A stretch of 14,261 bases of DNA from the UHGV virus genome UHGV-0074784; one strand, written 5' to 3'. The notes under the pieces are model-generated. The model did no database searches. It was given only the letters and a program-made list of their open reading frames with translations, and was not told where the DNA came from. Position 1 is the stretch's first letter. Every line of letters starts with the position of its first letter. The DNA comes from a virus. The translations under genes and the position numbers were made by a program. Of the stretch, positions 1 through 14,261 are shown in pieces.

Positions 1-1
1 T

Positions 2-787
2 TCTTTGTCGGTAAAAGTGGTCATTATGCTCCAGCCTCCGGTGCTTTTGGCATTAACGCGTAAGGCGCGTCGCCAGGGTAACCGCAATGCGTCGAATGTT
101 TATCAGCTTAACGTTGCGAAGCTTCAGGCAGCGGCATTTTCTCAACTGTCAGATTCTGACCCGTCAAAATCTGACGCATCAAAATCTGACCCGTCAAAAT
201 TTGATGCGTCGAAATCTGGCAAAAAAGCGGGTTTTCACCCGTCAGAATCTGGCGGGGATCCGTCAGTAAAATCAAAACATGATCCGTCAGATAAAAAACC
301 TTCTCGTCCGGACGCTTCGCAACCGGACACGCAGACGGATGAACAGGATTTTTTAACTCGCCATCCTGATGCGGTTGTATTCAGCCCTAAAAAGCGCCAG
401 TGGGGAACGCAGGATGATTTGACCTGCGCACAGTGGCTCTGGAAAAAAATCATCGCCCTGTACGAGCAAGCCGCCGAATGTGACGGCGAGGTGGTTCGTC
501 CCAAAGAACCGAACTGGACAGCCTGGGCAAACGAAATTCGCCTGATGTGTGTGCAGGATGGTCGTACTCACAAACAAATCTGCGAGATGTACAGCCGCGT
601 CAGCCGCGATCCGTTCTGGTGCCGTAACGTGCTCAGCCCGTCGAAGTTGCGGGAAAAATGGGATGAGCTTTCCCTGCGCTTATCGCCGTCCGTCAGCACG
701 CACACAGAAAAACGCGAAGACCCGTACTTCAAAGCCAGTTACGACAATGTGGACTACAGCCAGATCCCGGCGGGATTCAGGGGGTGA
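2..787 (+). CDS. Phage replication protein with DnaT-like (primosomal protein I-like) C-terminal domain; 5' end probably outside the window (alternatively starts at ATG 26)
   Basis: Frame is open from the window edge to the stop at 785-787. The C-terminus ...DYSQIPAGFRG closely resembles the E. coli DnaT C-terminus (...SQIPPGFRG) as I recall it. An S/D/K-rich low-complexity linker is encoded by tandem repeats. Position upstream of the nin/RusA region fits a lambdoid replication module. Confidence 0.6.
   Translation, partial: SLSVKVVIMLQPPVLLALTRKARRQGNRNASNVYQLNVAKLQAAAFSQLSDSDPSKSDASKSDPSKFDASKSGKKAGFHPSESGGDPSVKSKHDPSDKKPSRPDASQPDTQTDEQDFLTRHPDAVVFSPKKRQWGTQDDLTCAQWLWKKIIALYEQAAECDGEVVRPKEPNWTAWANEIRLMCVQDGRTHKQICEMYSRVSRDPFWCRNVLSPSKLREKWDELSLRLSPSVSTHTEKREDPYFKASYDNVDYSQIPAGFRG
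155..214 (+). repeat. Tandem ~15-bp repeat units (TCTGACCCGTCAAAA-like), including a perfect 16-bp direct repeat (155-170 and 185-200) and a perfect 11-bp inverted repeat (173-183 and 200-210), inside the replication gene; iteron-like
   Basis: Read directly: TCTGACCCGTCAAAAT occurs twice 30 bp apart; GACGCATCAAA is the reverse complement of TTTGATGCGTC. Further CCGTCAG-containing copies follow at about 236, 259 and 281, then an A-rich stretch. Confidence 0.55.
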
Positions 788-2808: not shown

Positions 2809-3810
2809 GTGACCGTGAGAGCACTACTGACCCCTGAAATTGCCCCGTGTATGGGGATCGTATTGTTCAGGCCAGGTTCAGAGCTGATGCCCCTGTTTAT
2901 GCAGGGGCGTGTCCTGCTGGAGCCTGAGCCGGAACGTTATTCATCTTTCGCCAGTGGTGCCGTTCCGGCGGCATCACAACCGCTGGCGGATGATCCTGCC
3001 GTTCGGGCCGTGTTCCGCAATGAGGCAGTGATCCGTCGTGCTGGTGGCGTGGAATGTCTTGAAAGCTGGTTACTTCGTGAAAAAGGCTGCCAGTGGCCTC
3101 ATTCCGACTGGCACAGCGAGAACATGACCACAATGCGGCACGCGCCGGGCGCAATCCGTCTGTGCTGGCACTGCGATAACCAGTTGCGCGATCAGTTCAC
3201 GGAACGGCTGGAATCAATGGCAACGGATAACTGTGCCCGCTGGGTGTTATCTGTTGTGCGCCGTGATCTCGGTTTTGATGATAGTCACGTTGTGACAATG
3301 CCGGAACTGTGCTGGTGGCTGGTTCGTAATGACCTGGCGGATGCCTTACCGGAAAGTGCAGCCCGTAAGGCACTGAGATTACCGAAGCCTGTTGTGCCGT
3401 CTGTTACCCGGGAAAGTGACCTTGTGCCTTCGGTTCCTGCCACCAGCATCATCCAGGATAAAGCGAAAAAGGTGCTGGCGCTGAAAGTGGATCCGGAGTC
3501 GCCGGAGTCTTTTATGTTACGCCCAAAACGTCGCCGCTGGGTTAATGAAAAGTACACGCGCTGGGTTAAGACACAGCCGTGTGCATGTTGTGGAAAGCCT
3601 GCTGATGATCCCCACCACCTGACAGGTCACGGTCAGGGTGGAATGGGAACAAAAGCGCATGACCTCTTTGTGTTGCCTTTGTGCAGAAAGCATCACGACG
3701 AGCTGCATGCGGATACCGTGGCATTTGAAGAGATGTATGGCTCCCAGCTGGAGCTGATATTTCGTTTTATCGATCGTGCGCTGGCGATCGGCGTAATTGC
3801 GACAGCTTAA
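2809..3810 (+). CDS. DUF968-family phage protein (YdfU-like) with C-terminal Cys/His HNH-like zinc-binding motif
   Basis: 333-aa ORF with GTG start. C-terminus CACCGKPADDPHHLTGHG...LPLCRKHHDELH has CxxC...HH...CxxHH spacing typical of DUF968/HNH-like proteins encoded next to Q in lambdoid prophages (Qin ydfU-like arrangement). Confidence 0.65.
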   Translation: MTVRALLTPEIAPCMGIVLFRPGSELMPLFMQGRVLLEPEPERYSSFASGAVPAASQPLADDPAVRAVFRNEAVIRRAGGVECLESWLLREKGCQWPHSDWHSENMTTMRHAPGAIRLCWHCDNQLRDQFTERLESMATDNCARWVLSVVRRDLGFDDSHVVTMPELCWWLVRNDLADALPESAARKALRLPKPVVPSVTRESDLVPSVPATSIIQDKAKKVLALKVDPESPESFMLRPKRRRWVNEKYTRWVKTQPCACCGKPADDPHHLTGHGQGGMGTKAHDLFVLPLCRKHHDELHADTVAFEEMYGSQLELIFRFIDRALAIGVIATA

Positions 3811-4521
3811 GTGTATGGAGCGCTGAGAAGTATGAATCAACAAGACTTGAATTTTGTCAGAATAGAACTACGTCGTGCGCTGTTTGACTTCTCTGGGGGG
3901 ACAAAAGGGCAGCTTGAGGCTTTCACTGAACACCCACCAGCAGACAAAAATGCCACTCCACGCCGTGGAATTCATCTTGTCGAACTCGAAGGTGATAAGG
4001 GACCACGCTTTGTTAACTCGCTTTCCGCGCCATTGTACGTGCAAGAAACACGTAGCCGCCCCAGGCCAATGCCGCCGATAAAAGATGTAGAATTTGAGTC
4101 CGCGCCGTGGCGTAGGGCAGTGTCCGCGCTTAGTGGATACCAGCAGGCTTGGTTGCGGTACTGTTACGGTTTTGACCTTAACTATACGCACCAGGTGATG
4201 ATGTGTGAATACGTCTGGAAGGCTTATCAGAAATGCTTGGGTAAAAACTCACTTCAGGAGCGCGTAGTAAAAAAACTAATAGGCCTAGTATGGCTTGCAG
4301 GACAGGAAATTGCTGCAACCCGAAACAATGAAACCTATAAAGACTACGCTGGTGCGGCGCTGGCCCGTATGGTTAGCGTTGACCGTTCGACATGGTTGCG
4401 CGTCTATTCAGGCCACTGGGCTGGGTTAAAGGCCGCTTTTACCCAGCTTGATGAGTCTGCGCTGGCCATGGCTCTTGAATACTATGAGGATGAAGAAGCT
4501 CTCAAAGTGGGAGAAATATGA
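3811..4521 (+). CDS. Putative late-gene antitermination protein Q (non-lambda Q family); true start may be ATG 3832
   Basis: Sits immediately upstream of an intergenic region with an intrinsic terminator and the lysis cassette, and downstream of the DUF968 gene (same order as ydfU-quuQ). Assignment is mainly positional; no clear zinc-finger motif as in lambda Q. Confidence 0.5.
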   Translation: MYGALRSMNQQDLNFVRIELRRALFDFSGGTKGQLEAFTEHPPADKNATPRRGIHLVELEGDKGPRFVNSLSAPLYVQETRSRPRPMPPIKDVEFESAPWRRAVSALSGYQQAWLRYCYGFDLNYTHQVMMCEYVWKAYQKCLGKNSLQERVVKKLIGLVWLAGQEIAATRNNETYKDYAGAALARMVSVDRSTWLRVYSGHWAGLKAAFTQLDESALAMALEYYEDEEALKVGEI

Positions 4522-4714: not shown

Positions 4715-5500
4715 ATGTATATATTTGAATTGACCAAACCTGGCAACTGGCTTGAAAGTGAAGACAAAGAGTGGTCTTGGAAAATAGAACGGCTTTTGGA
4801 CCATCTTGAATTTGCATTTTATGAGGCTAATGTTGCATTAAATTTATTTATGCAGCAGCAAAACAATCAAATAGAACAACAAGGGGTTTCGCAATTGCAA
4901 TGGGAAAAAGAAATGCAAGAACGAAGAACCATCGAAACACTAGTTCGTGAGGAGTTAGGTTTATCCCCTTTTGAGAATCCTGAAAACATACAATTTGAGG
5001 TGGACGCGAGGTTTAAACGAGAAAAGTGGAGTTCTGGTGAAATTCCACGTAGCCACAAACATTGTGTGATTTTTATTTATGCAAAATCTTTTCTTTATTC
5101 TCTTGATACTATTGATAAATTTATAAAGGTTATTTCGAATGAACCTTATGCTCCTGAGTCGATAAAAGCCCTACACGATCAGATAGGTAAAGATTTTCCT
5201 GATCTCAGAGGGGTTAGGAATTCAACTCAACACCTCGAAGATAGGGCTCGAGGGCTTGGCGCAGGGAGAGAACCGAAGCCTTTGAATCTCCAGCCTATAA
5301 GTAATACCTTCATAAATGCACCGCAAGGTGCTTTGATATTAAATAATCTGAATGGCACCAAATTCGGGTCAACTATGTCTGATGGTCACTATGGTGAAGT
5401 GGACATTTCACCTGAATCGTTATCAAAAATGCAAAGTATTGTTCAGGGCGTTCTTGACTCGTTTAAGTGGGTTGGTAATCAGCAACACTTACCAAGTTAA
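4715..5500 (+). CDS. Hypothetical AT-rich cargo (moron) protein, 261 aa, with an R-N-x3-H (HEPN-like) motif; candidate toxin or abortive-infection effector
   Basis: Long ORF in a visibly AT-rich island (about 30-43% GC in sampled 60-bp lines versus ~52% in flanking phage genes). VRNSTQHLEDR at about residues 168-178 fits the Rx4-6H HEPN signature with the typical polar residue after R. Flanked by terminators at 4614-4640 and 5523-5549. No signal peptide or TM segment apparent. Confidence 0.6.
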   Translation: MYIFELTKPGNWLESEDKEWSWKIERLLDHLEFAFYEANVALNLFMQQQNNQIEQQGVSQLQWEKEMQERRTIETLVREELGLSPFENPENIQFEVDARFKREKWSSGEIPRSHKHCVIFIYAKSFLYSLDTIDKFIKVISNEPYAPESIKALHDQIGKDFPDLRGVRNSTQHLEDRARGLGAGREPKPLNLQPISNTFINAPQGALILNNLNGTKFGSTMSDGHYGEVDISPESLSKMQSIVQGVLDSFKWVGNQQHLPS

Positions 5501-5593: not shown

Positions 5594-5980
5594 ATGTCCG
5601 ATCCGATTTCCGGCACAGGGTTAGCTGCTGGAGTCCTGACAGGCGCTAGTGTTTATGGACTGCTGACCGGAACTGATTACGGTGTTGTATTTGGCGCATT
5701 TGCAGGGGCTGTATTCTACATCGCAACAGCAGCAGATCTGAGTTTATCGCGTCGACTGGCATATTTTATCGTGTCGTATATTGCCGGAATCCTTTGCTCT
5801 GGGTTGGTTGGCTCCAAGCTGGCAAACTTGACCGGATACAGTGATAAACCTCTGGATGCTATTGGTGCCGTAATCGTCTCTGCTTTAGCCGTTAAAATCC
5901 TGACGTTTCTGAATAACCAGGATATCGGTTCGCTGGTGGCGCTTATAACGCGCCGGGGAGGTTCAGGTGGAGCTAAATGA
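5594..5980 (+). CDS. Phage holin (multi-TM small membrane protein)
   Basis: 128 aa, glycine/alanine-rich hydrophobic segments (GLAAGVLTGASVYGLLTG, VVFGAFAGAVFYIATAA, IVSYIAGILCSGLVG), charged C-terminus. RBS AAGAGGGGG upstream. Immediately precedes the endolysin. Confidence 0.7.
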   Translation: MSDPISGTGLAAGVLTGASVYGLLTGTDYGVVFGAFAGAVFYIATAADLSLSRRLAYFIVSYIAGILCSGLVGSKLANLTGYSDKPLDAIGAVIVSALAVKILTFLNNQDIGSLVALITRRGGSGGAK

Positions 5981-6248
5981 CCCGACAGCAACTATAAATG
6001 CGCTGTTATGTGCTTGTGTTGTTATTACTCTGATGTTTTATCGTCGTGGTGATTCGCGGCATCGTCCTTGGGTTTCACGTTTAGCCTGGCTGATTACTGT
6101 TACATACAGTGCTGTTCCGTTGGCCTATCTCTGTGGGATTTATCCCCATTCCTCATGGCCCATTATCGTGGCGAATACTATTTTTCTTTCCGTGCTGGTG
6201 GCCGTCAGAGGCAACGTTGCACGTCTGGTTGATCATCTGAGGCACTAA
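5967..6248 (+). CDS. Second small membrane protein of the lysis cassette (holin/antiholin-like)
   Basis: 93 aa with GTG start preceded by GGGGAGG; two or three hydrophobic segments (LLCACVVITLMFY, LAWLITVTYSAVPLAYLCGI, IIVANTIFLSVLVAV). Overlaps the upstream holin end and the endolysin start. Confidence 0.5.
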   Translation: MELNDPTATINALLCACVVITLMFYRRGDSRHRPWVSRLAWLITVTYSAVPLAYLCGIYPHSSWPIIVANTIFLSVLVAVRGNVARLVDHLRH

Positions 6249-6862
6249 TGAACCAACAATTATTTCAAAAGGCGGCTGGTATTAGCGCCGGGCTGGCTGC
6301 GCGCTGGTTTCCGCACATTGATGCGGCGATGAAGGAATTCGGCATTACAGCACCAGCGGATCAGGCAATGTTTATCGCTCAGGTAGGCCATGAGTCGATG
6401 GGGTTTAGCGCCGTAGTTGAAAATTTTAACTACACACCATCTGCGCTGGTGGCGTCGTTCGGAAAGAGGATTACACAGCAGCAGGCTGATGCCCTTGGCA
6501 GAACATCCGGACATGCAGCTCGTCAGGATGCTATTGCCAATCTTGTGTATAGCAACCGACTGGGTAACAAAGCACCAGGTGATGGCTGGAAATATCGTGG
6601 TAGAGGATTAATTCAAATCACTGGCCTCCATAATTATCGCATCTGTGGCGCGGCGCTGAAGTTAGATCTGGTGACTTCACCTGAACAACTGGAACAGGAG
6701 CTACAGGCCGCGCGCTCAGCTGCATGGTTCTACACCTCTAAAGGTTGCATGGTCTACGGTACCGATATTAATCGTGTTACGCGCATCATTAACGGCGGTC
6801 TGAACGGTATTGAGGATCGTAAGGTTCGATACAACAAGGCGCGGGCGGCGCTGCTGGTATGA
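6248..6862 (+). CDS. Endolysin, glycoside hydrolase family 19 (chitinase-like lysozyme)
   Basis: 204 aa with motifs typical of GH19 phage endolysins (FIAQVGHESMGF, YRGRGLIQITGLHNY, INGGLNG). TAATG start/stop coupling with the preceding gene. Confidence 0.85.
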   Translation: MNQQLFQKAAGISAGLAARWFPHIDAAMKEFGITAPADQAMFIAQVGHESMGFSAVVENFNYTPSALVASFGKRITQQQADALGRTSGHAARQDAIANLVYSNRLGNKAPGDGWKYRGRGLIQITGLHNYRICGAALKLDLVTSPEQLEQELQAARSAAWFYTSKGCMVYGTDINRVTRIINGGLNGIEDRKVRYNKARAALLV

Positions 6863-7251
6863 AGATGAGTTATTGGGCGCTCATTTTAACGTTTATTGCT
6901 TGTATTGCTGGTGGTCTTGTTTGGTCAGCGAATCACTATCATGGAAAGTTTCTGGAGGAGCAGAAGCGTGCTGACGCTGCGGAACAGCGAGCTGATTCTA
7001 CTGAGGCTATCACCGCGAATGTTCTGCGTACTATGGCAATAACGAACATCATTCAGGAGGCGAATCAATATGCAAAACAGCAGATCGCACTGGAGTCACA
7101 GAGAACCCAGGAAGATATCAAAGTGGCTGTTGCGGATGATGATTGTGCTTCACGTCCTGTGCCTGCTGCCGCTGCTGACCGGTTGCGGAAGTACGCGAAC
7201 AGTTTACGTGAGCATTCCGAAGACTCCACTACCAGTCAGCTTGACTTCTGA
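6859..7251 (+). CDS. i-spanin (Rz-like)
   Basis: 130 aa with N-terminal TM helix (YWALILTFIACIAGGLVW) followed by a charged, coiled-coil-like periplasmic domain. ATGA overlap with the endolysin stop. Contains the start of an out-of-frame lipoprotein ORF. Confidence 0.7.
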   Translation: MKMSYWALILTFIACIAGGLVWSANHYHGKFLEEQKRADAAEQRADSTEAITANVLRTMAITNIIQEANQYAKQQIALESQRTQEDIKVAVADDDCASRPVPAAAADRLRKYANSLREHSEDSTTSQLDF

Positions 7252-7384
7252 TACACCTGTACCGTTTATACCCAACCCACTGACGTATGGTGCAAGTCTT
7301 GATTTGAATGTAAGTTTGTTATCCGCGTTGGCTCAATGTAATAGGGATAAGTCTGATATCAGAATCATTGATAATCAAAATTGA
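7136..7384 (+). CDS. o-spanin (Rz1-like outer-membrane lipoprotein), overlapped architecture
   Basis: +1 frame relative to Rz; MMIVLHVLCLLPLLTGC supplies a signal peptide with lipobox LTGC. Mature part is proline-rich (PKTPLPVSLTSDTPVPFIPNP). Extends 133 bp beyond the Rz stop. Confidence 0.7.
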   Translation: MMIVLHVLCLLPLLTGCGSTRTVYVSIPKTPLPVSLTSDTPVPFIPNPLTYGASLDLNVSLLSALAQCNRDKSDIRIIDNQN

Positions 7385-7587: not shown

Positions 7588-8094
7588 ATGCGACCAGATC
7601 AATTTTTCTATCCAGATACTTTTACCTTTAATTCATCCACCTATTATGGTCAACGTGACTCATCTAAAGGTCGATTGTATATTCTTATTGAAAGTGACTT
7701 ATGTCCATTTAATATCGGCGATATCATTGTGCAAAAAATGGTCGACAGGGAAAGACTATTTGAAGTGCTTGATTACGAGGTACAAATTAGTCTCGAGGCT
7801 GGTTGCCCTGGCTACTCACATTTGGCGGTATTGATAGTGAAGGCATTGGATGTAAAAGAGAAGCCGAAGCAGATTACGACCCATTTGACGTTTAACGGTG
7901 CTATTAATGCTGGTGGTGATTTTCAAGCCGGTAATGACAATTCGATCACAAAGAATATAACCATTCAACAACTACATGATGCTATAGAGCATTGCAATGA
8001 TCCAGAGGTTAAAAGCCTTTGGCAAAAGCTATTGGAAAATCCGACGTTTGCTTCAATTGCTTCAATATTGGCAAAAAGTGCTTTAGGACAGTAA
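7588..8094 (+). CDS. Hypothetical AT-rich cargo (moron) protein, 168 aa, unknown function
   Basis: ORF with good RBS (AAGAGGGA, 7571-7578) in an AT-rich island (~35% GC in a sampled line) between the spanins and the HNH/terminase genes. Followed by an intrinsic terminator. Soluble, no TM segment or signal peptide, no recognisable catalytic motif. Confidence 0.55.
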   Translation: MRPDQFFYPDTFTFNSSTYYGQRDSSKGRLYILIESDLCPFNIGDIIVQKMVDRERLFEVLDYEVQISLEAGCPGYSHLAVLIVKALDVKEKPKQITTHLTFNGAINAGGDFQAGNDNSITKNITIQQLHDAIEHCNDPEVKSLWQKLLENPTFASIASILAKSALGQ

Positions 8095-8127: not shown

Positions 8128-8151
8128 GCTTATTACAAAGAGTTTTCTTCA

Positions 8152-8502
8152 ATGCCACCACGAACTCCAAAAGCCTGCCGTGTTCGCGGGTGCCGCCGTA
8201 CCACCACTGACCCGTCAGGTTATTGCGAAAGCCACAAAAGCGAAGGCTGGAAGCAATACAAGCCAGGACAATCCCGTCATCAGCGCGGCTACGGTTCGAA
8301 GTGGGACGTTATCCGCGCGCGTGTGCTGAAACGTGACAAAGGTTTATGTCAGTTATGTCTGCGCGCTGGTGTGGTGCGTGAGGCGAAAACTGTTGACCAC
8401 ATCATCCCTAAAGCGCATGGCGGCACTGATGCCGACTGTAATCTGCAGAGTCTGTGCTGGCCGTGTCATAAGGCGAAGACGGCCCGTGAACGGATTAAGT
8501 AA
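8152..8502 (+). CDS. Phage-associated HNH endonuclease (terminase-associated type)
   Basis: 116 aa with CxxC zinc-finger pairs (CRVRGC...C, CQLC, CWPCH) and the HNH catalytic region DHIIPKAHGG...N. Located immediately upstream of the small terminase, as in HK97-like cos packaging modules. Confidence 0.85.
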   Translation: MPPRTPKACRVRGCRRTTTDPSGYCESHKSEGWKQYKPGQSRHQRGYGSKWDVIRARVLKRDKGLCQLCLRAGVVREAKTVDHIIPKAHGGTDADCNLQSLCWPCHKAKTARERIK

Positions 8503-8520
8503 GAACCAGTTCCCACTGCC

Positions 8521-8590
8521 AGAGGGGAGGGGCGGGTCAAATCCCTGTGACCTGACGTCTTCCGGACTGCCCGCCCCATCGTTTTTTTAT
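8521..8590 (+). other. G/C-rich inverted repeat (GGGGCGGG ... CCCGCCCC) followed by a T7 run, between HNH and terS; candidate cos region and/or terminator
   Basis: 8-bp perfect inverted repeat at 8529-8536 and 8570-8577, then ATCGTTTTTTTAT. In HNH-dependent cos phages the cohesive-end site lies between the HNH and terS genes. Confidence 0.35.
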
Positions 8591-8627
8591 ACCCGCGAAA
8601 AATGAAATTTAACCAGGAGTGCCGCAT

Positions 8628-9122
8628 ATGGCTGGAACGGCGGGGCGTTCCGGGCGTCGCCCCAAGCCAACGGCGCGCAAGGCGCTGGCCGGAAACCCCG
8701 GCAAGCGAGCCCTGAATAAAGATGAACCTGTTTTTACGCCCATCAAAGGTGTTGAGCCACCGGAGTGGTTCGCAGAAGAAAATCTCCCTCTCGCCACGAT
8801 CATGTGGCAACTGACAACCAAAGAACTCTGCGGTCAGGGCCTGTTGTGCGTGACTGACCTCGCGGTGCTTGAGCGGTGGTGCGTGGCCTATGAGTTCTGG
8901 CGACGTGCCGTGAAAAATATTGCCATACAGGGCAACACCATCACCGGTGCAATGGGCGGCAGGGTCAAAAATCCGGAGCTGACCGCCAAAAAAGAACAGG
9001 AGTCCGAGATGAGCAGCACGGGGGCAATGCTCGGACTCGACCCCAGCAGCCGCCAGCGTCTGATTGGCCTGGCGGGGCAGAAGAAAGCCACTAACCCGTT
9101 TCTGAAAATCATCGAGTCATGA
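8628..9122 (+). CDS. Terminase small subunit (P27-family type)
   Basis: About 165 aa with a basic N-terminus ([25 protein letters not shown]), typical of P27-family small terminases. RBS AGGAG at 8615-8619. Directly precedes the large terminase with ATGA overlap. Confidence 0.8.
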
Positions 9123-9925
9123 GCCGGAAATCTTACCCCAACGTAAATGCTGCCAATCAGTATGCCCGTGATGTTGTGCGCGGAAAGATTGTGGCCTGCC
9201 AGTTTGTGATTCAGGCCTGCCAGCGCCATCTTGATGACCTGATGGCGGAAAAAAGTAAGTCGTTTCGTTACCGCTTCGACAAGGACCTGGCTGAACGGGC
9301 TGCCAAATTTATTCAGCTGTTGCCGCACACCAAGGGGGAGTGGGCATTCAAGAGGATGCCCATCACGCTGGAGCCGTGGCAGCTCTTTGTGATCTGCTGT
9401 GCGTTTGGCTGGGTCAATAAAGGCTCCCGGCTGCGCCGCTTCCGGGAGGTGTATACCGAAATCCCCCGTAAGAACGGCAAATCGGCAATCTCTGCCGGTG
9501 TTGCCCTGTATTGTTTTGCCTGTGATAACGAGTTTGGCGCGGAAGTGTATTCCGGTGCCACGACAGAGAAACAGGCGTGGGAAGTCTTTCGCCCGGCGCG
9601 ACTGATGTGTAAACGCACACCCATGCTGACGGAAGCGTTCGGGATTGAGGTTAACGCCTCAAACATGAACCGTCCGGAGGATGGCGCGCGGTTTGAACCG
9701 CTGATCGGTAACCCCGGTGATGGTTCATCACCCCACTGTGCCGTGGTGGATGAATATCACGAGCACGCCACCGATGCGCTTTATACCACGATGCTTACCG
9801 GGATGGGCGCGCGACGTCAGCCACTGATGTGGGCCATCACCACCGCCGGGTACAACATTGAGGGGCCGTGCTACGACAAGCGGCGGGAAGTTATCGAGAT
9901 GCTCAACGGTTCGGTATGTTTCTGA
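9119..9925 (+). pseudogene. Terminase large subunit, N-terminal ATPase domain only (C-terminal nuclease domain missing)
   Basis: Walker A-like EIPRKNGKS and Walker B-like AVVDEYHE are present, but the ORF stops after 268 aa (...EMLNGSVCF). Intact large terminases of this type are roughly twice as long. Downstream sequence switches to tail-gene coding. Confidence 0.75.
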
Positions 9926-9929
9926 TGCG

Positions 9930-10715
9930 ATGAAAGTGGTGGATTCTGCCGTATCGGATGCCGCCAGGCTGTTGCAGGGGGATATCTCGGTACTTCTGCC
10001 GCCGCCATCGTCAGGCAAAAATTTCGTTGAGCAGGTGCAGAAAATGTGGCGTACCGGGAAACGCCTTTATGGTAACGCCAGCGACCTGGTCACCATGATC
10101 AAAACGCTTTCCGGTGTCAGCCTCGGCAGCGATCTGCAACCGCGCGGCGTCTGGAAAACGGACAGTAAAACCACCGCCACGGCGACGCAGCAGCGTAACG
10201 TGGTTGCCAGCACCCTTCGTACGACCGCAATCAGCGAAGCGGCGTATGCCGTCACCCGATTGCCTGCGCCAACAACTTCCGCGGTGATGCAGAATTCCGC
10301 AGTGGGGCAGGCAACAACACCCGCGCAGAGCACTGGCTGGCCTTCCATCACGCATCCGGCACTGAACAATGCACCGGCGGTGAAAAACACGGTTGACCTG
10401 CCGACGTGGGAAGAACTGACTGACATTCGCGACACACTGAATACGGCAATTGATAAGGAGTTGTCCCGTACAACCAGCGATGCGCTGTTTCTGGCGCTGC
10501 GCCGGGTGAAAGCAGATCTGAATGCGGATATCAACACGCGCCTTGAACAGTCTGCACGGATCATTCAGCGCACACCGGATGAGGTTTTACCCGCGCTGGT
10601 GCTGGCGGCGACCTGGTTTGATAACGCGGCGCGTGACGCGGACATTATCCGGCGTAATGCCATTACGCATCCCGGCTTTGTGCCGGTGATCCCTCTGAAG
10701 GTGCCAGTGCAATGA
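9930..10715 (+). pseudogene. Mu gp43/N-like tail (DNA circularisation) protein, probable C-terminal fragment left by a deletion
   Basis: ORF in a different frame from the terminase. Its stop overlaps the start of the gp44-like gene, as in intact Mu-like tail modules. The 5' part of the ORF-track frame (9858-9929) overlaps terminase coding and is probably not native. Assignment is by position and composition; weak. Confidence 0.4.
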
Positions 10716-11791
10716 ACGACAATGTCACGCTACGGGTAAATGGCCGGGAGTGGAATGGCTGGACATCGGTGCGCATCGGTGCCGGTATTGAACGGCTGGC
10801 GCGGGATTTCAGTGTGGAGATCACCCGCCAGTGGCCGGGAGATGAGGGTATCACCACGCTTCAGCCGCGCATTAAAAACGGTTCAAAAGTGGAGGTGCTG
10901 ATTGGTGATGAGCTGGTGATCACCGGCTGGGTGGAGGCGACGCCCGTTCGTTACGATGCCCGTTCGGTCAGCACCGGTATTGCCGGACGCAGTCTGACCG
11001 CTGACCTGATTGACTGTGCAGCCGAACCGACACAGTTTAATGGACGATCGCTGGTACAGATTGCGCAGGCGCTTGCTGCGCCTTTCGGCATTGAGGTGGT
11101 GAACAACGGTGCGCCGTCGGGTGTTATTCCTGATGTCCAGCCTGATCACGGTGAAACGGTGATTGAGGTAATCAACAAAATACTCGGTCAGCAGCAGGCA
11201 CTGGCTTACGACGACCCGCACGGCAGGCTGGTGATTGGCGGTATTGGCTCAACGCGGGCACATACTGCGCTGGTACTCGGGGAAAACATCCTTTCCTGCG
11301 ATACGGAGAAGAGTATCCGGGAGCGGTTTTCTGTTTACCAGGTGGCGGGGCAGCGTGCCGGAAACGACGATGATTTCGGTGAGGCCACCACCACCGCGCT
11401 GCGGGCCCGCACAGAGGACGCATTTATTGCCCGTTACCGTCCGATGTATATCAGGCAGACAGGGCAGGCTACGGGGGCAGGCTGTATTGCCCGTGCGGAC
11501 TTTGAAGCCCGACAACGGGCGGCGCGGACGGATGAAACCACCTATGTGGTGCAGGGCTGGCGACAGGGTAACGGTACGCTGTGGCAGCCCAACCAGCGGG
11601 TGATTGTCTTTGATCCGGTCTGTGGTTTCGACAATACCGAACTGCTTGTTTCGGAAGTCACGTTTACTCAGGACCAGAACGGCACCCTGACGGAAATCCG
11701 TGTCGGCCCACCTGATGCTTATCTGCCTGAACCCGAAGCCCCCAGCGCGCGGAAAAAGAAAAAAGCCAGAGTACAGGAGGACCCGTTCTGA
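10712..11791 (+). CDS. Mu gp44 (P)-like baseplate hub protein
   Basis: 359 aa; size, gene order (before gpV-like, gp46-like and J-like genes) and ATGA coupling match Mu-like baseplate modules. Lysine-rich C-terminus (SARKKKKARVQEDPF). Confidence 0.7.
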   Translation: MNDNVTLRVNGREWNGWTSVRIGAGIERLARDFSVEITRQWPGDEGITTLQPRIKNGSKVEVLIGDELVITGWVEATPVRYDARSVSTGIAGRSLTADLIDCAAEPTQFNGRSLVQIAQALAAPFGIEVVNNGAPSGVIPDVQPDHGETVIEVINKILGQQQALAYDDPHGRLVIGGIGSTRAHTALVLGENILSCDTEKSIRERFSVYQVAGQRAGNDDDFGEATTTALRARTEDAFIARYRPMYIRQTGQATGAGCIARADFEARQRAARTDETTYVVQGWRQGNGTLWQPNQRVIVFDPVCGFDNTELLVSEVTFTQDQNGTLTEIRVGPPDAYLPEPEAPSARKKKKARVQEDPF

Positions 11792-12339
11792 TGAGGACGA
11801 TTGAAGCCATGCAGCGACAACTCCTCGGCCTGATTGGGCGGGCCGTGGTGAAAAGCATCAGTGCCGCCACGAAATGTCAGACCGTGGATGTGTCCCTGAT
11901 TGCCGGTGAACCCAAAGCCGGGGTTGAACATCTTGAACCCTACGGTTTTACCTCAAGGGCAAACAGCGGTGCGGAAGCGGTGGTGTTGTTTCCGGATGGC
12001 GACCGTTCTCATGCGGTGGTTGTTACGGTGTCGGACCGGCGCTACCGCCTGAAAGGGCTGCAGACGGGTGAGGTGGCTGTCTATGACGATCAGGGGCAGT
12101 CCGTGACGCTGACCCGGGAGGGGATCGTGGTGGACGGTGCAGGTAAAACGATCACGTTTCGCAATTCACCTAAAGCGCGTTTTGAAATGGACCTGGAAGT
12201 GACCGGACAGGTGAAAGACCTGTGCGACTCCGGCGGCACCACCATGTCAGCGATGCGGCTTGCCTATAACGGCCATCGTCACAGAGAGAACGGTCAGGGC
12301 AGTAACACCGACAAACCGGATAAAGCGATGGAGGCATGA
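11791..12339 (+). CDS. Baseplate assembly protein V / Mu gp45-like baseplate spike
   Basis: 182 aa; N-terminal region (GLIGRAVVKSI...VDVSLIAGEPKAGVEHLEPYGFTSRANSGAEAVVLFPDGDRSHAVVV) is typical of gpV-like OB-fold spike proteins. Gene order supports the call. Confidence 0.75.
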   Translation: MRTIEAMQRQLLGLIGRAVVKSISAATKCQTVDVSLIAGEPKAGVEHLEPYGFTSRANSGAEAVVLFPDGDRSHAVVVTVSDRRYRLKGLQTGEVAVYDDQGQSVTLTREGIVVDGAGKTITFRNSPKARFEMDLEVTGQVKDLCDSGGTTMSAMRLAYNGHRHRENGQGSNTDKPDKAMEA

Positions 12340-12764
12340 TGGAACTGTGGCTGACGGTGAACGGTAAACGCACCTGCGCCAGCGCACCGCTGGATCCGCT
12401 GACCCGCGCCGTGGTGATTTCCCTGTTCACCTGGCGGCGGGCGGAGCCTGATGATAATGCCGACGTCCCGATGGGATGGTGGGGGGATACCTGGCCTGCG
12501 GTACAGAATGACCGTTACGGCTCCCGACTGTGGCTGCTTCAGCGCAGCAAACTGACCAATCAGCTGGTGCAGACGGTAAGGGGGTATATCCGCGAATGCC
12601 TGCAATGGATGACTGATGACGGCGTGGTGTCCCGTATTGATCTGGATATCCGCCGCACCGGGATTAATGAACTGGGTAACAGTATCACTCTCTGGCGTCG
12701 TGACGGACCGGTAATGATTTCTTTTGATGATCTGTGGAGTGCGATAACGCATGGCGGACAGTGA
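12336..12764 (+). CDS. Mu gp46-like (GP46 family, gp25/W-like) baseplate protein
   Basis: 142 aa small protein between the gpV-like and baseplate-J-like genes, with overlapping start/stop codons. Confidence 0.7.
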   Translation: MMELWLTVNGKRTCASAPLDPLTRAVVISLFTWRRAEPDDNADVPMGWWGDTWPAVQNDRYGSRLWLLQRSKLTNQLVQTVRGYIRECLQWMTDDGVVSRIDLDIRRTGINELGNSITLWRRDGPVMISFDDLWSAITHGGQ

Positions 12765-13809
12765 ATTTCAGCGCCCGACGCTGGCAGAAAATATCAGTAT
12801 GCTCCGTAACGATTTATTCGCCAGGCTGGACGTCAGCGACACGCTCCGGCGCATGGATGAAGACGTGCGGGCAAAGGTGTATGCGGCGGCGCTGCATACG
12901 GTTTACGGTTACATCGATTATCTGGCAATGAACATGCTGCCTGACCTGTGCGATGAGTCCTGGCTGGCGCGACATGCTGCGATGAAACGGTGTCCGCGCA
13001 AGGGGGCCACGGCTGCCAGCGGGTATATGCGCTGGGAAGGTGTCAGCGATGGCCTGAAGGTGACTGCCGGGAGTGTTATTCAGCGCGATGACCTGGTTCA
13101 GTACACGGCAACTGCCGATGCAACCAGCTCCGGTGGTGTCCTGCGCGTGCCGATCGCCTGCTCAAGTGCAGGTGCGGTCGGTAACGCTGACGACGGTACG
13201 GCATTAATCCTGGTCACGCCGGTGAATGGTCTGCCGTCTTCCGGTGTGGCTGACACCCTGACAGGCGGATTTGATACTGAAGAGCTGGAAACGTGGCGCG
13301 CCCGCGTCATTGAGCGGTATTACTGGACGCCTCAGGGCGGGGCTGACGGGGACTATGTCGTCTGGGCTAAAGAAGTGCCCGGCATTACCCGCGCATGGAC
13401 ATACCGTCACTGGATGGGAACGGGAACTGTCGGTGTGATGATTGCCAGCAGTGACCTGATTAATCCCATTCCGGAAGAATCAACGGAAACGGCGGCAAGA
13501 CAACATATTGAGCCACTGGCCCCGGTGGCAGGCTCTGATTTGTATGTGTTCAGGCCGGTGGCACATACGGTGGATTTTCATATCCGTGTGACGCCGGACA
13601 CACCGGAAATACGGGCTGCCATCACCGCGGAGTTGCGTTCGTTCCTGCTGCGTGATGGTTATCCGCAGGGAGAACTGAAGGTATCGCGTATCAGTGAGGC
13701 GATTTCCGGTGCGAACGGGGAATACAGCCATCAGTTGCTTGCACCGGCAGACAATATCTCCATTGCAAAAAATGAACTGGCGGTTCTGGGGACGATTTCA
13801 TGGACGTGA
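12751..13809 (+). CDS. Baseplate J-like protein (Mu gp47-like)
   Basis: 352 aa; size, composition and position upstream of the DUF2313 tail protein fit the baseplate J family. Confidence 0.75.
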
Positions 13810-14261
13810 CAAACGATGATTACATCCGTCTGTTGTCGGCACTGCTGCCGCCCGGTCCGGCGTGGTCAGCCAGCGATCCGGCGATTGCAGGTGCGGCACC
13901 GTCATTAACCCGTGTTCATCAGCGTGCGGATGCCCTGATGCGGGAGCTGGATCCGCGCACCACCACTGAACTGATAAACCGCTGGGAGCGTCTGTGCGGT
14001 CTGCCGGATGAATGTATTCCCGCAGGGACACAGACCCTTCGCCAGCGTCAGCAACGGCTGGATGCGAAGGTTAATCTGGCGGGCGGCATCAATGAGGATT
14101 TTTATCTTGCACAGCTTGCTGCCCTGGGCAGACCAGACGCCACTATCACGCGATACGATAAAAGCACGTTCACCTGCTCATCGGCCTGTACTGACGCAGT
14201 GAATGCGCCGGAATGGCGGTATTACTGGCAGGGTCGAGCAGCACGCCACCCCATCCAGATC
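13800..14261 (+). CDS. Phage tail protein, DUF2313 / YmfQ-like (Mu gp48-like); 3' end outside window
   Basis: ATG at 13800 overlaps the baseplate J stop. N-terminus [25 protein letters not shown] matches the LLPPGPAW signature of YmfQ-like proteins as I recall it. Frame remains open to the window end. Confidence 0.7.

Follow-up and report, generated by a model that had tools for sequence, protein, structure and literature searches.

A decayed SfV/e14-family prophage from the human gut with a terminase-to-baseplate deletion that starts at a recurrent GGTACC site

In the 14,261-nucleotide stretch of viral DNA analysed here (UHGV virus genome UHGV-0074784, hereafter the window), the open reading frame for the large terminase, TerL, ends after 268 codons and the genes of a Mu-like baseplate follow directly. 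How did a packaging enzyme come to lie against a tail module? Judging from the sequence, the window belongs to a cryptic SfV/e14-family prophage, from which 11-12 kb of head and tail genes between TerL and the baseplate gene N have been deleted. This family combines an HK97-like head and a Mu-like contractile tail with a lambdoid early region, and the window follows its gene order: HNH endonuclease, cos, small terminase (TerS, P27 family) and TerL, then, past the missing genes, N and gp44-48, with a tail-fibre gene at the end of the source contig (Table 1). That contig, 14.9 kb assembled from short reads of a human gut metagenome, sample ERR526021, is still prophage DNA at both ends; the integrase region falls outside it, and the integration sites of relatives are thrW/proA, dusA and icd. 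Over cos, TerS, the truncated TerL (TerL') and the N-to-gp48 module, nucleotide identity to SfV-type phages and to EC43/SC476-type prophages is 96-98%; its host is E. coli or a species close to it. Membership of the e14 family rests on 97-99% identity to SfV and EC43-type prophages, whose genes bear e14 names such as ymfR, ymfQ and ymfL, and the left-arm cargo genes of the window are also present in the SC476 prophage. Outside its deletions the window is identical in synteny to the Shigella flexneri serotype-converting phages SfV, SfI, SfII and SfIV and to the EC43/SC476 prophages.

Table 1. Coordinates of the features in the window and the basis of each assignment
Feature	Position	Strand	Basis
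Early-left operon remnant (yfdT side), left of the first junction	1..55	-	100% identical to SC476 prophage L021 15001-15055, PCP06173 and SfV 22324-22378
Junction of the second deletion, ~4.4 kb, TTA microhomology	53..55	.	Three-way alignment with SC476, 15055 joined to 19417
O-like replication initiator, N-terminally truncated	5..787	+	PHROG 391 match starts at profile position 67/298
Antiterminator Q	3811..4521	+	Pfam Phage_antiter_Q, E=3e-37
Lysis cassette: two holins, GH19 endolysin, Rz with embedded Rz1/LysC	5594..7384	+	Pfam matches
HNH endonuclease, adjoining cos and terminase	8152..8502	+	Pfam HNH, E=5e-15
cos region, flanks GGGGCGGG / CCCGCCCC	8520..8585	.	SfV nt 1 = window 8561; BLAST window 8561-9915 to SfV 1-1355
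Small terminase (P27 family), intact	8628..9122	+	Pfam Terminase_4; 164 aa on source contig
Truncated large terminase TerL', codons 1-266 then Cys-Phe-stop	9119..9925	+	Pfam, alignment to EC43
TerL-N deletion junction, GGTA	9913..9916	.	Three-way alignments with EC43 and SC476
N' remnant, residues 182-442 of Mu N/gp43-like protein	9930..10715	+	Alignment to EC43, PHROG
Baseplate hub gp44 / Mu P-like, intact	10712..11791	+	Pfam GpP-like_1st, Gp44-like_2nd, GpP_4th; 1 nt off EC43
gp45 / V-like spike, intact	11791..12339	+	Pfam Phage_Mu_Gp45; same as EC43
gp46 / W-like, intact	12339..12764	+	Pfam GP46
Baseplate J / gp47, intact	12751..13809	+	Pfam Baseplate_J, E=4e-53
gp48 / YmfQ (DUF2313), running past the window end	13800..14261	+	Pfam Phage_Mu_Gp48; complete on source contig L006

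A first-pass annotation made from the letters alone had noted a TerL that ends near residue 268 with its Walker motifs but without a nuclease domain, and baseplate genes directly behind it, and both observations hold. Within the 268 residues of TerL', PF03354 TerL_ATPase is matched at residues 86-256 (174 of the 178 profile positions, E=6e-27); RKNGKS is a Walker A-like motif, and AVVDE at 208-212 is a Walker B. A Pfam scan of this ORF did not find PF20441 TerL_nuclease. Intact homologues such as that of EC43 have 577 residues, TerL_ATPase occupying 86-256 and TerL_nuclease 268-558. By this comparison the ORF at 9119-9925 is a truncated TerL remnant, with the N-terminal region and the entire ATPase domain, and not a functional member of the HK97-type terminases. 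The break falls between the two domains, so that TerL' could fold. Downstream, the genes are those of gp44/P, gp45/V, gp46/W, J/gp47 and gp48/YmfQ, and they are preceded by N', a remnant collinear with the C-terminal 60% of a 442-residue EC43 protein, from whose gene it differs by 1 nt over 786 nt. N' matches PHROG 184 (positions 184-408 of 411) and PHROG 17109, annotated 'baseplate hub' and 'DNA circularization'. It has no Pfam match; DNA_circ_N (PF07157), which was not found in it, spans residues 7-93 of the intact EC43 protein and thus belongs to the deleted part. The direct fusion proposed in the first-pass annotation stands in that the two genes abut, and fails in that they are not joined in frame: TerL' reads two codons of N sequence out of frame (Cys-Phe) before its stop, and N' restarts 4 nt further on at an ATG with no obvious Shine-Dalgarno sequence. 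TerL' and N' are by-products of a deletion, not designed proteins.

The deletion expected near 9900-9930 maps to a 4-bp GGTA that is common to TerL nt 795-798, where it lies within GGTACC, and to N nt 527-530. EC43 matches the window by 97.5% over 8150-9916 and by 99.7% over 9913-14232, and 11,712 bp of EC43 (11,091 bp of SC476) are absent in between. With this segment went the TerL nuclease domain, ymfR, the portal, protease, capsid, connectors and tail terminator, the sheath, tube, chaperone and tape measure, and ~176 codons from the start of N. SfV-type phages and the EC43/SC476 prophages have a complete TerL and the head, sheath, tube and tape-measure genes that the window lacks, and in these intact relatives the missing morphogenesis genes sit between TerL and N. 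As the first-pass annotation had observed, no portal, protease, capsid, connector, sheath, tube or tape-measure gene is present in the window, nor is one present anywhere on the 14.9-kb contig, and virion production is impossible by gene content. The element is not an R-type tailocin, as the sheath, tube and tape-measure genes fall in the deleted segment. Nor is it a phage satellite of the PICI or P4-like kind: cos, HNH and TerS are kept, but the replication gene is truncated and the window holds no satellite-type gene.

Because the source contig was assembled from short metagenomic reads, the junction might be an assembly chimera, or the short TerL might belong to a naturally split terminase. 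The exact 268-residue TerL' with its Cys-Phe tail is found on nine contigs from at least five sequencing runs and on one isolate-derived contig in IMG/VR, and given this recurrence the junction is real. Moreover, a 4-bp overlap is far too short for a mis-join in a de Bruijn graph, full-length homologues of TerL have 577 residues and that of N has 442, and complete proteins align with the ORF at 9930-10715 over their C-terminal part only. As the contig holds no head genes either, none of the three grounds for refutation named in the first-pass annotation applies. The probability of either explanation is practically negligible. The exact junction was found neither among 5,426 complete E. coli genomes nor among GTDB species representatives, and the lineage is therefore uncommon among finished genomes.

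[quoted passage not shown] By analogy with lambdoid phages, the early promoters were probably removed together with the repressor/cro region, in which case Q and the lysis genes would be silent without any selection. With its immunity region gone and its O-like gene truncated, the element should neither replicate nor be induced.

Are the retained genes kept because they serve the host? The first-pass annotation had suggested that selection preserves the baseplate, lysis and cargo genes, and one may further imagine that TerL', as a dominant-negative ATPase, interferes with related phages. Every retained ORF is indeed intact, TerL' breaks at a domain boundary that would permit folding, and the junction is found in several samples. 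On the other hand, the right arm differs from an intact prophage by only 11 nt over ~4.3 kb (six synonymous and five non-synonymous codon changes), a pattern that recency accounts for without a sign of purifying selection; the retained genes are intact because the deletion is recent. Sheath and tube are missing, so that no tailocin can be formed, the early region expected to hold promoters has been deleted, and the two low-GC cargo ORFs have no PADLOC match. Nor could selection pin an endpoint to one nucleotide. We therefore regard a domesticated module as unlikely, and the proposal of host-beneficial selection is not borne out; the case is a caution against taking intact genes in a prophage remnant for evidence of domestication.

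The fixed endpoint is what sets this locus apart. Loss of 11-12 kb is ordinary, and the unexpected part is the recurrent GGTACC start point. In public data, TerL nt 798 (GGTA/CC, the slash marking the break) is joined at the same nucleotide to at least 20 different partners, a total made up of 13 distinct protein tails, the further protein tail P0022 and six types known only as DNA. The 13 tails, found among 67 truncated or fused TerL proteins, start after V266 or P267; elsewhere there are 0-1 tails per codon, except for four at residue 179. Sixteen junction types were checked as DNA: 13 carry a T allele (GGTTCGGTA) and three a G allele, an excess that may reflect a ranking bias towards the query haplotype, and at least four upstream haplotypes are represented. 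Given two alleles and several upstream haplotypes, the junction types arose independently. The T allele is common in intact genes (378 genomes and 110 IMG/VR contigs), and it is not an absolute requirement, as three of the 16 DNA-verified types carry G. Not every GGTACC is a hot site: the one at TerL nt 1197 has a single junction type, and the one in the tail-terminator gene has no junction in IMG/VR.

The second such position lies in the portal gene. Its GGTACC at nt 408, the left endpoint of the beeE-jayE junction of e14, has at least 17 partners. At least 17 distinct portal tails start at residues 136/137, compared with at most two at any other unambiguous codon; four further tails map to residue 133, two of which read as breaks at residue 136 on a Cys134Ser allele. 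In IMG/VR there are four portal DNA types, that of e14 included. The e14 prophage of E. coli K-12 (ymfN/aaaE, ymfR, beeE, jayE, ymfQ, stfP, pinE) shares its family and gene order with the window, deletions inside the morphogenesis region have made both of them defective, and its beeE-jayE junction has the same form as the one described here, with a left GGTA/CC in GGTACC and a partner GGGTA/TAT. The first-pass comparison with e14 is thus right as to family, supported by the SfV/EC43 identity and the e14 gene names, but the deletions end at different places. In e14 the joined pairs are portal nt 408 with J nt 272, and the O-like gene with TerL nt 598; in the window TerL nt 798 meets N nt 527, and the early-left operon meets the O-like gene. 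Likewise, e14 keeps int, xis and the repressor and has lost the lysis genes, while the window keeps Q, the lysis genes, HNH, cos and TerS and has lost the repressor. Our literature search on a deletion hot spot in the terminase or in e14 returned nothing relevant.

Could each junction be a one-off, random microhomology deletion by replication slippage, its recurrence being an artefact of the search? A microhomology of 4 bp is typical of slippage deletions, and both the DNA patterns and the protein queries were anchored on the TerL nt 798 endpoint. However, breaks past codon 266 score equally well in the same protein search, yet there are ~10 types over the following ~180 codons compared with 13 at codons 266/267. 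The portal search behaves alike, with seven types over the ~100 codons past residues 136/137, and the anchor played no part in finding e14 and L088. These findings make slippage with biased detection very unlikely, and the left endpoint is not random. Alternatively, one ancestral TerL nt 798 junction may have been repeatedly extended rightward, so that the types are nested deletions related by descent, and the partners do run progressively downstream (protease, head closure, N, gp46, ymfQ, tail fibre). Under this explanation every later deletion must begin precisely at the old junction, and left arms with both T and G alleles on at least four upstream haplotypes are not accounted for. Some types cannot be derived from others, as L019 keeps the segment from head closure to sheath that is absent in the window type, and the portal site independently shows the same behaviour. 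Common descent is thus highly improbable. Taken together, it is very probable that the window is a decayed SfV/e14-family prophage with two deletions, in which TerL nt 798 was joined to N nt 527 by microhomology.

What is common to most of these junctions is the dinucleotide TA. Directly 5' of the junction, TA is present in 17 of 19 portal partners and in 13 of 16 TerL partners, compared with a background of ~3.4% of dinucleotides. Most partners have a microhomology ending in TA, and junction homology is 2-5 nt with no inserted DNA. The junctions CT02, L084, P0008 and P0009 of the family do not follow the TA rule. One scheme that would fit is that a break or exchange occurs preferentially at the central TA of G-N-TA-N-C palindromes, and that the broken end then joins other sites through 2-5 nt of homology including the TA, whether by template switching or by end joining of the cohesive or microhomology kind. 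It is a real possibility, if slightly short of an even chance, that such sequence-preferential breakage and rejoining, with GGTACC far ahead of GTTAAC and GATATC, repeatedly truncates SfV/e14-family prophages at identical nucleotides of terminase and portal.

Two known classes of event resemble the junctions in part. Short-homology illegitimate recombination or alternative end joining (A-EJ) in E. coli produces the deletion hot spots of lacI and lambda-bio phages, and A-EJ depends on RecBCD and LigA; like the junctions of the window family, its products have 2-5 nt of homology and no insert. We know of no classical microhomology case, however, with a nucleotide-fixed endpoint joined to ~20 partners or with a required TA at the centre of a palindrome. 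Restriction enzymes, homing endonucleases and serine recombinases that leave 2-nt 3' overhangs make chromosome scars as well, and these are like the hot sites in that exchange is confined to the central dinucleotide of a palindrome, here TA, and that both halves can be retained. Known GGTACC enzymes, in contrast, cut elsewhere than at the TA of the hot site, and KpnI-type cleavage, GGTAC^C, would leave an end other than that observed.

Candidate agents would be an endonuclease or restriction system of the GGTACC type, an off-target complex of phage HNH and terminase, or a recombinase with a TA core; no enzyme of matching specificity was found in the window or tied to the GGTACC hot sites. Terminase-adjacent HNH nickases cut CG^GT (PMC3592412), and the phage HNH acting as such a nickase is disfavoured, as the nick of these related enzymes lies 3 nt from the observed end. 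The Pin invertase acting at a quasi-site is likewise disfavoured: the pix sites of e14 read AAACC-TT-GGTTT, with different arms, and the Pin sites of the family have a TT/AA core in a context different from the GGTACC hot site. A pseudo-cos at TerL nt 798 is unlike the cos region. A 12-bp motif, TNNGGTACCNNA, or the half-site GTTCGG accounted for the initial handful of sites but broke down at the G-allele events, and the tail-terminator GGTACC has no junctions; a hairpin at the imperfect palindrome GTTCGGTACCCAAC is, by inspection, too weak. KpnI/Acc65I-type cleavage, gyrase (4-nt stagger), IS91 (GTTC target), IS5/IS630 (TA targets), HUH transposases, CRISPR self-targeting and Vsr-type nicking after deamination appear unsuitable, the grounds being cut position, no element at the junction or no candidate gene.

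On its own, the locus is one more decayed prophage, and this explains its odd gene order fully. Deletion is the main route to cryptic prophages and is usually treated as random, but in this family dozens of independent deletions, fixed to a single nucleotide and bearing a TA-centred signature, gather at two positions, of which one is the classic e14 junction of K-12. If the preferential breakage is true, decay of E. coli prophages would be driven in part by a specific nuclease or recombinase and would not be purely random, and the junction of the window, beeE-jayE of e14 and those of dozens of other defective prophages would share one process. A restriction system might be the agent, its scars persisting nowhere but in DNA that the host can spare; another example would be off-target action of the HNH-terminase complex of the phage. 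Scars of this kind could then mark past nuclease activity, the truncated terminase and portal genes in genome annotations would go back to one cause, and, should a specific enzyme be responsible, prophage inactivation becomes a testable mechanistic question. As to the two halves of the broken site, left halves are kept on ~10 contigs and a right half on one in IMG/VR; protein searches detect left-retained products only, and it is uncertain whether the excess of left halves is real. The one junction that keeps the right half starts with TACC, and partners often carry a half-site, GGTA or TACC, of their own.

The window is an ordinary defective prophage, read correctly as such by the first-pass annotation, and two deletions account fully for its structure. 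Its long open reading frames all lie on the plus strand, in the layout of a lambdoid prophage.

Features of the window, in map order
Feature	Position	Strand	Group
O-like replication gene, N-terminally truncated	5-787	+	early/regulatory
PerC-like, LexA-like, RusA, KilA-N, DUF968, antiterminator Q	after O-like gene	+	early/regulatory
Low-GC cargo ORF	4715-5500	+	
Lysis cassette: two holins, GH19 endolysin, Rz/Rz1	5594-7384	+	
Second low-GC ORF	7588-8094	+	
HNH endonuclease	8152-8502	+	packaging
Small terminase (TerS)	8628-9122	+	packaging
Large-terminase ORF (TerL'), 268 aa	9119-9925	+	packaging
261-aa ORF (N remnant)	9930-10715	+	
Mu-like baseplate genes gp44, gp45, gp46, J/gp47, gp48/YmfQ	3' of 9930-10715	+	

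The intact prophage of E. coli EC43 runs HNH, TerS, TerL, ymfR, portal, protease, capsid, connectors and tail terminator, and continues with sheath, tube, chaperone, tape measure, N and gp44-48. The window aligns to it at 97.5% identity over 8150-9916 and at 99.7% over 9913-14232, and 11,712 bp of EC43 are absent between the two arms, which bears out the proposed deletion between terminase and baseplate; relative to the SC476 prophage, which has the left-arm cargo genes in common with the window, 11,091 bp are absent. The predicted junction was found as a GGTA overlap of the two alignments at 9913-9916, corresponding to TerL nt 795-798 (intact TCGGTA/CCC, the slash marking the break) and to N nt 527-530 (GGGGTA/TGT). 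This junction is real. The exact TerL' product occurs on nine public contigs from at least five sequencing runs, the window's own source, a 14,875-nt human-gut contig, being one of them, and an IMG/VR contig originating from an isolate genome shares the junction but not the lysis module. A search of 5,426 complete E. coli genomes found no copy of the junction, nor did one of GTDB representatives.

The large terminase is indeed truncated after its ATPase domain: PF03354 is complete at residues 86-256, with a Walker A-like RKNGKS and a Walker B AVVDE, and the nuclease domain, located at 268-558 in the 577-aa full-length relatives, is missing. TerL' stops matching after codon 266 and ends in Cys-Phe-stop read from out-of-frame N sequence, and the N frame restarts at the ATG at codon 182, 4 nt past the TerL' stop. 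The "direct fusion" therefore holds as a gene adjacency made by deletion, but not as an in-frame fusion. The 261-aa ORF yielded no domain in a Pfam scan and is similar to the PHROG baseplate-hub and DNA-circularization families over their C-terminal two thirds; intact N is 442 aa long, and the DNA_circ_N domain at its residues 7-93 falls within the part that is absent.

The added value lies in the recurrence of the breakpoint, which ties the locus to the architecture of the K-12 cryptic prophage e14. Two variants gave the first pointer to the endpoints: in strain CT02, TerL nt ~1491 is joined to N at a point that precedes the window's right endpoint by 19 nt, and in strain PCP06173, TerL is broken at the window's exact nucleotide and joined to gp46. 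Scanning for sequences ending in CTCAACGGNTCGGTA followed by any base but C showed the window's left endpoint linked also to ymfQ, a tail fibre, a head-closure gene and a prohead protease. When TerL' was used as a protein query, numerous truncated or fused terminases were recovered, and the point of divergence from TerL was mapped for each (67 proteins). Thirteen distinct tails start directly after V266 or P267; other codons between 160 and 450 have zero or one type each, bar aa 179 (four). Counting one more protein tail (P0022) and DNA-only types, partners of this endpoint number at least 20. All 16 DNA-verified types read CGGTA and then diverge, 13 with a synonymous T and three with G, on several upstream haplotypes; the junctions at nt 798 are therefore separate events rather than one inherited junction. 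The T allele is common in intact genes (378 genomes, 110 IMG/VR contigs).

The left endpoint of e14 (GTGGTA/CCG, portal nt 408) likewise lies inside GGTACC. Four partner types join it in IMG/VR. With the first 136 portal residues as protein query, at least 17 distinct tails were found at aa 136/137, with at most two at any other unambiguous codon; four further tails start at aa 133, two of them reading as aa 136 breaks on a Cys134Ser allele. In one case the right half is what remains; this junction starts TACCGAAG, and therefore the exchange point is the central TA and either side can survive. Relative to the same reference, e14 carries two deletions: one runs from the O-like gene as far as TerL nt 598, the other from portal nt 408 to J nt 272. 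These endpoints differ from the window's, and the likeness to e14 that had been noted is right as to family and process. The baseplate module is ~98% identical to those of the Shigella flexneri phages SfV, SfI, SfII and SfIV, and SfV also matches the cos-to-TerL' segment at 98% identity, its nt 1 corresponding to 8561.

Most partners have TA directly 5' of the junction (17 of 19 for portal, 13 of 16 for TerL), often as GTA, GGTA or CGGTA, against 3.4% of the region's dinucleotides; TA/CC is common to six portal partners (32% versus 6% expected). One partner is another GGTACC site, one is inverted, and some partners are joined to both hot spots. Among TA-centred palindromic hexamers in TerL and portal, GGTACC is very hot, GTTAAC (TerL nt 532) has five types, GATATC (portal nt 487) three, and AATATT, TTTAAA, TGTACA and CGTACG at most one each. 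A second TerL GGTACC has one type, and that of the tail terminator has no junction in IMG/VR. The five tails at GTTAAC (nt 532-537, window 9650-9655) start from aa 178/179, and at least two are consistent with a break after GTTA. CCGAAC or CCGAAT lies exactly 1 nt past the junction in four partners (P0008, P0009, L088 and L140; loci L143, L142, L088 and L140), an arrangement for which no model accounts. The motif resembles the right flanks of the hot sites (CCCAAC, CCGAAG), offset by 1 nt, and its occurrence there is far above chance.

How might such junctions form? The exchange point is fixed in the central TA, which is kept on either side, filler DNA is absent, and junction homology always includes TA, reaching left or right. 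Breakage might generate ends that each bear TA, such as 2-nt 3' overhangs, with cohesive or microhomology joining to follow; alternatively, the agent might be a recombinase whose core is TA, or templates might be switched at a fixed stall. All are candidate mechanisms that fit the pattern. Pin invertase sites and cos are unlike the hot site, and the specificities published for HNH nickases differ from it. KpnI-type and gyrase-type cuts would give ends other than those seen. A literature search found no publication on this breakpoint hot spot.

Further rearrangements were observed. TerL nt 798 is also an inversion-type endpoint beside P4-like satellite genes (L136, Logan ERR1623131_177), and PCP06173 carries a second, inverted HNH-TerS-TerL-portal' copy adjoining its truncated prophage (L004 18626-22487). 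TerL nt ~1491 (GAGCTGGAA/GCG; L001 of CT02, 14223) is a recurrent site without TA, used three times, once on the left side of a deletion (CT02) and twice on the right side of deletions internal to TerL (proteins P0016, P0051). A palindrome, CCAGCATAATGCTGG, lies in intact N (EC43 L002 19985-20000; equivalent to window ~9895-9912) directly upstream of the window's right endpoint, and CT02's independent deletion ends across it, 19 nt from that endpoint.

The second deletion joins early-left-operon sequence (1-55, yfdT side) through a TTA microhomology at 53-55 to codon ~70 of the O-like gene; compared with SC476, the window lacks ~4.4 kb, including a cI-like repressor, cro and ymfL. The oweE fragment of e14 is an analogous break in its O-like gene. 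Having neither an immunity region nor a complete replication gene, the remnant should be unable to be induced or to replicate. If the early promoters went with the deleted region, as the lambdoid layout leads one to expect, there is probably no transcription of Q, the lysis cassette or the late operon. Selection for the baseplate, lysis and cargo genes had been suggested from their retention, and we find no evidence for it: the right arm and EC43 show 11 differences over ~4.3 kb (six synonymous and five non-synonymous codon changes, no stops), and intact ORFs are expected after so recent a deletion. A tailocin is excluded, since sheath and tube are missing.

The two low-GC ORFs (35-40% GC) occupy moron positions, one behind Q and the other behind the lysis cassette; they match the function-unknown families PHROG 5322 and PHROG 5789 and gave no match in Pfam and PADLOC scans. 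Both are also present in the SC476 prophage, and the first in PCP06173. The element carries several nuclease-type genes, including RusA, HNH and the DUF968 protein (2809-3810), whose nuclease-like match to HNHc_6 is weak (E=2e-5, under the Pfam cut-off). Together with HNH and TerS, a cos region (8520-8585) flanked by GGGGCGGG and CCCGCCCC is kept and aligns to the SfV genome end; in principle, such a remnant might serve as target of a related helper terminase. Chi sites (GCTGGTGG) number eight on the plus strand (1903, 3040, 3311, 5932, 6194, 6445, 6907, 7909) versus two on the minus strand (3440, 3934) in 14 kb, all eight oriented to be active for RecBCD coming in from the right, a pattern that agrees with published lambdoid phages rich in Chi and lacking a Rec module (PMC12315714).
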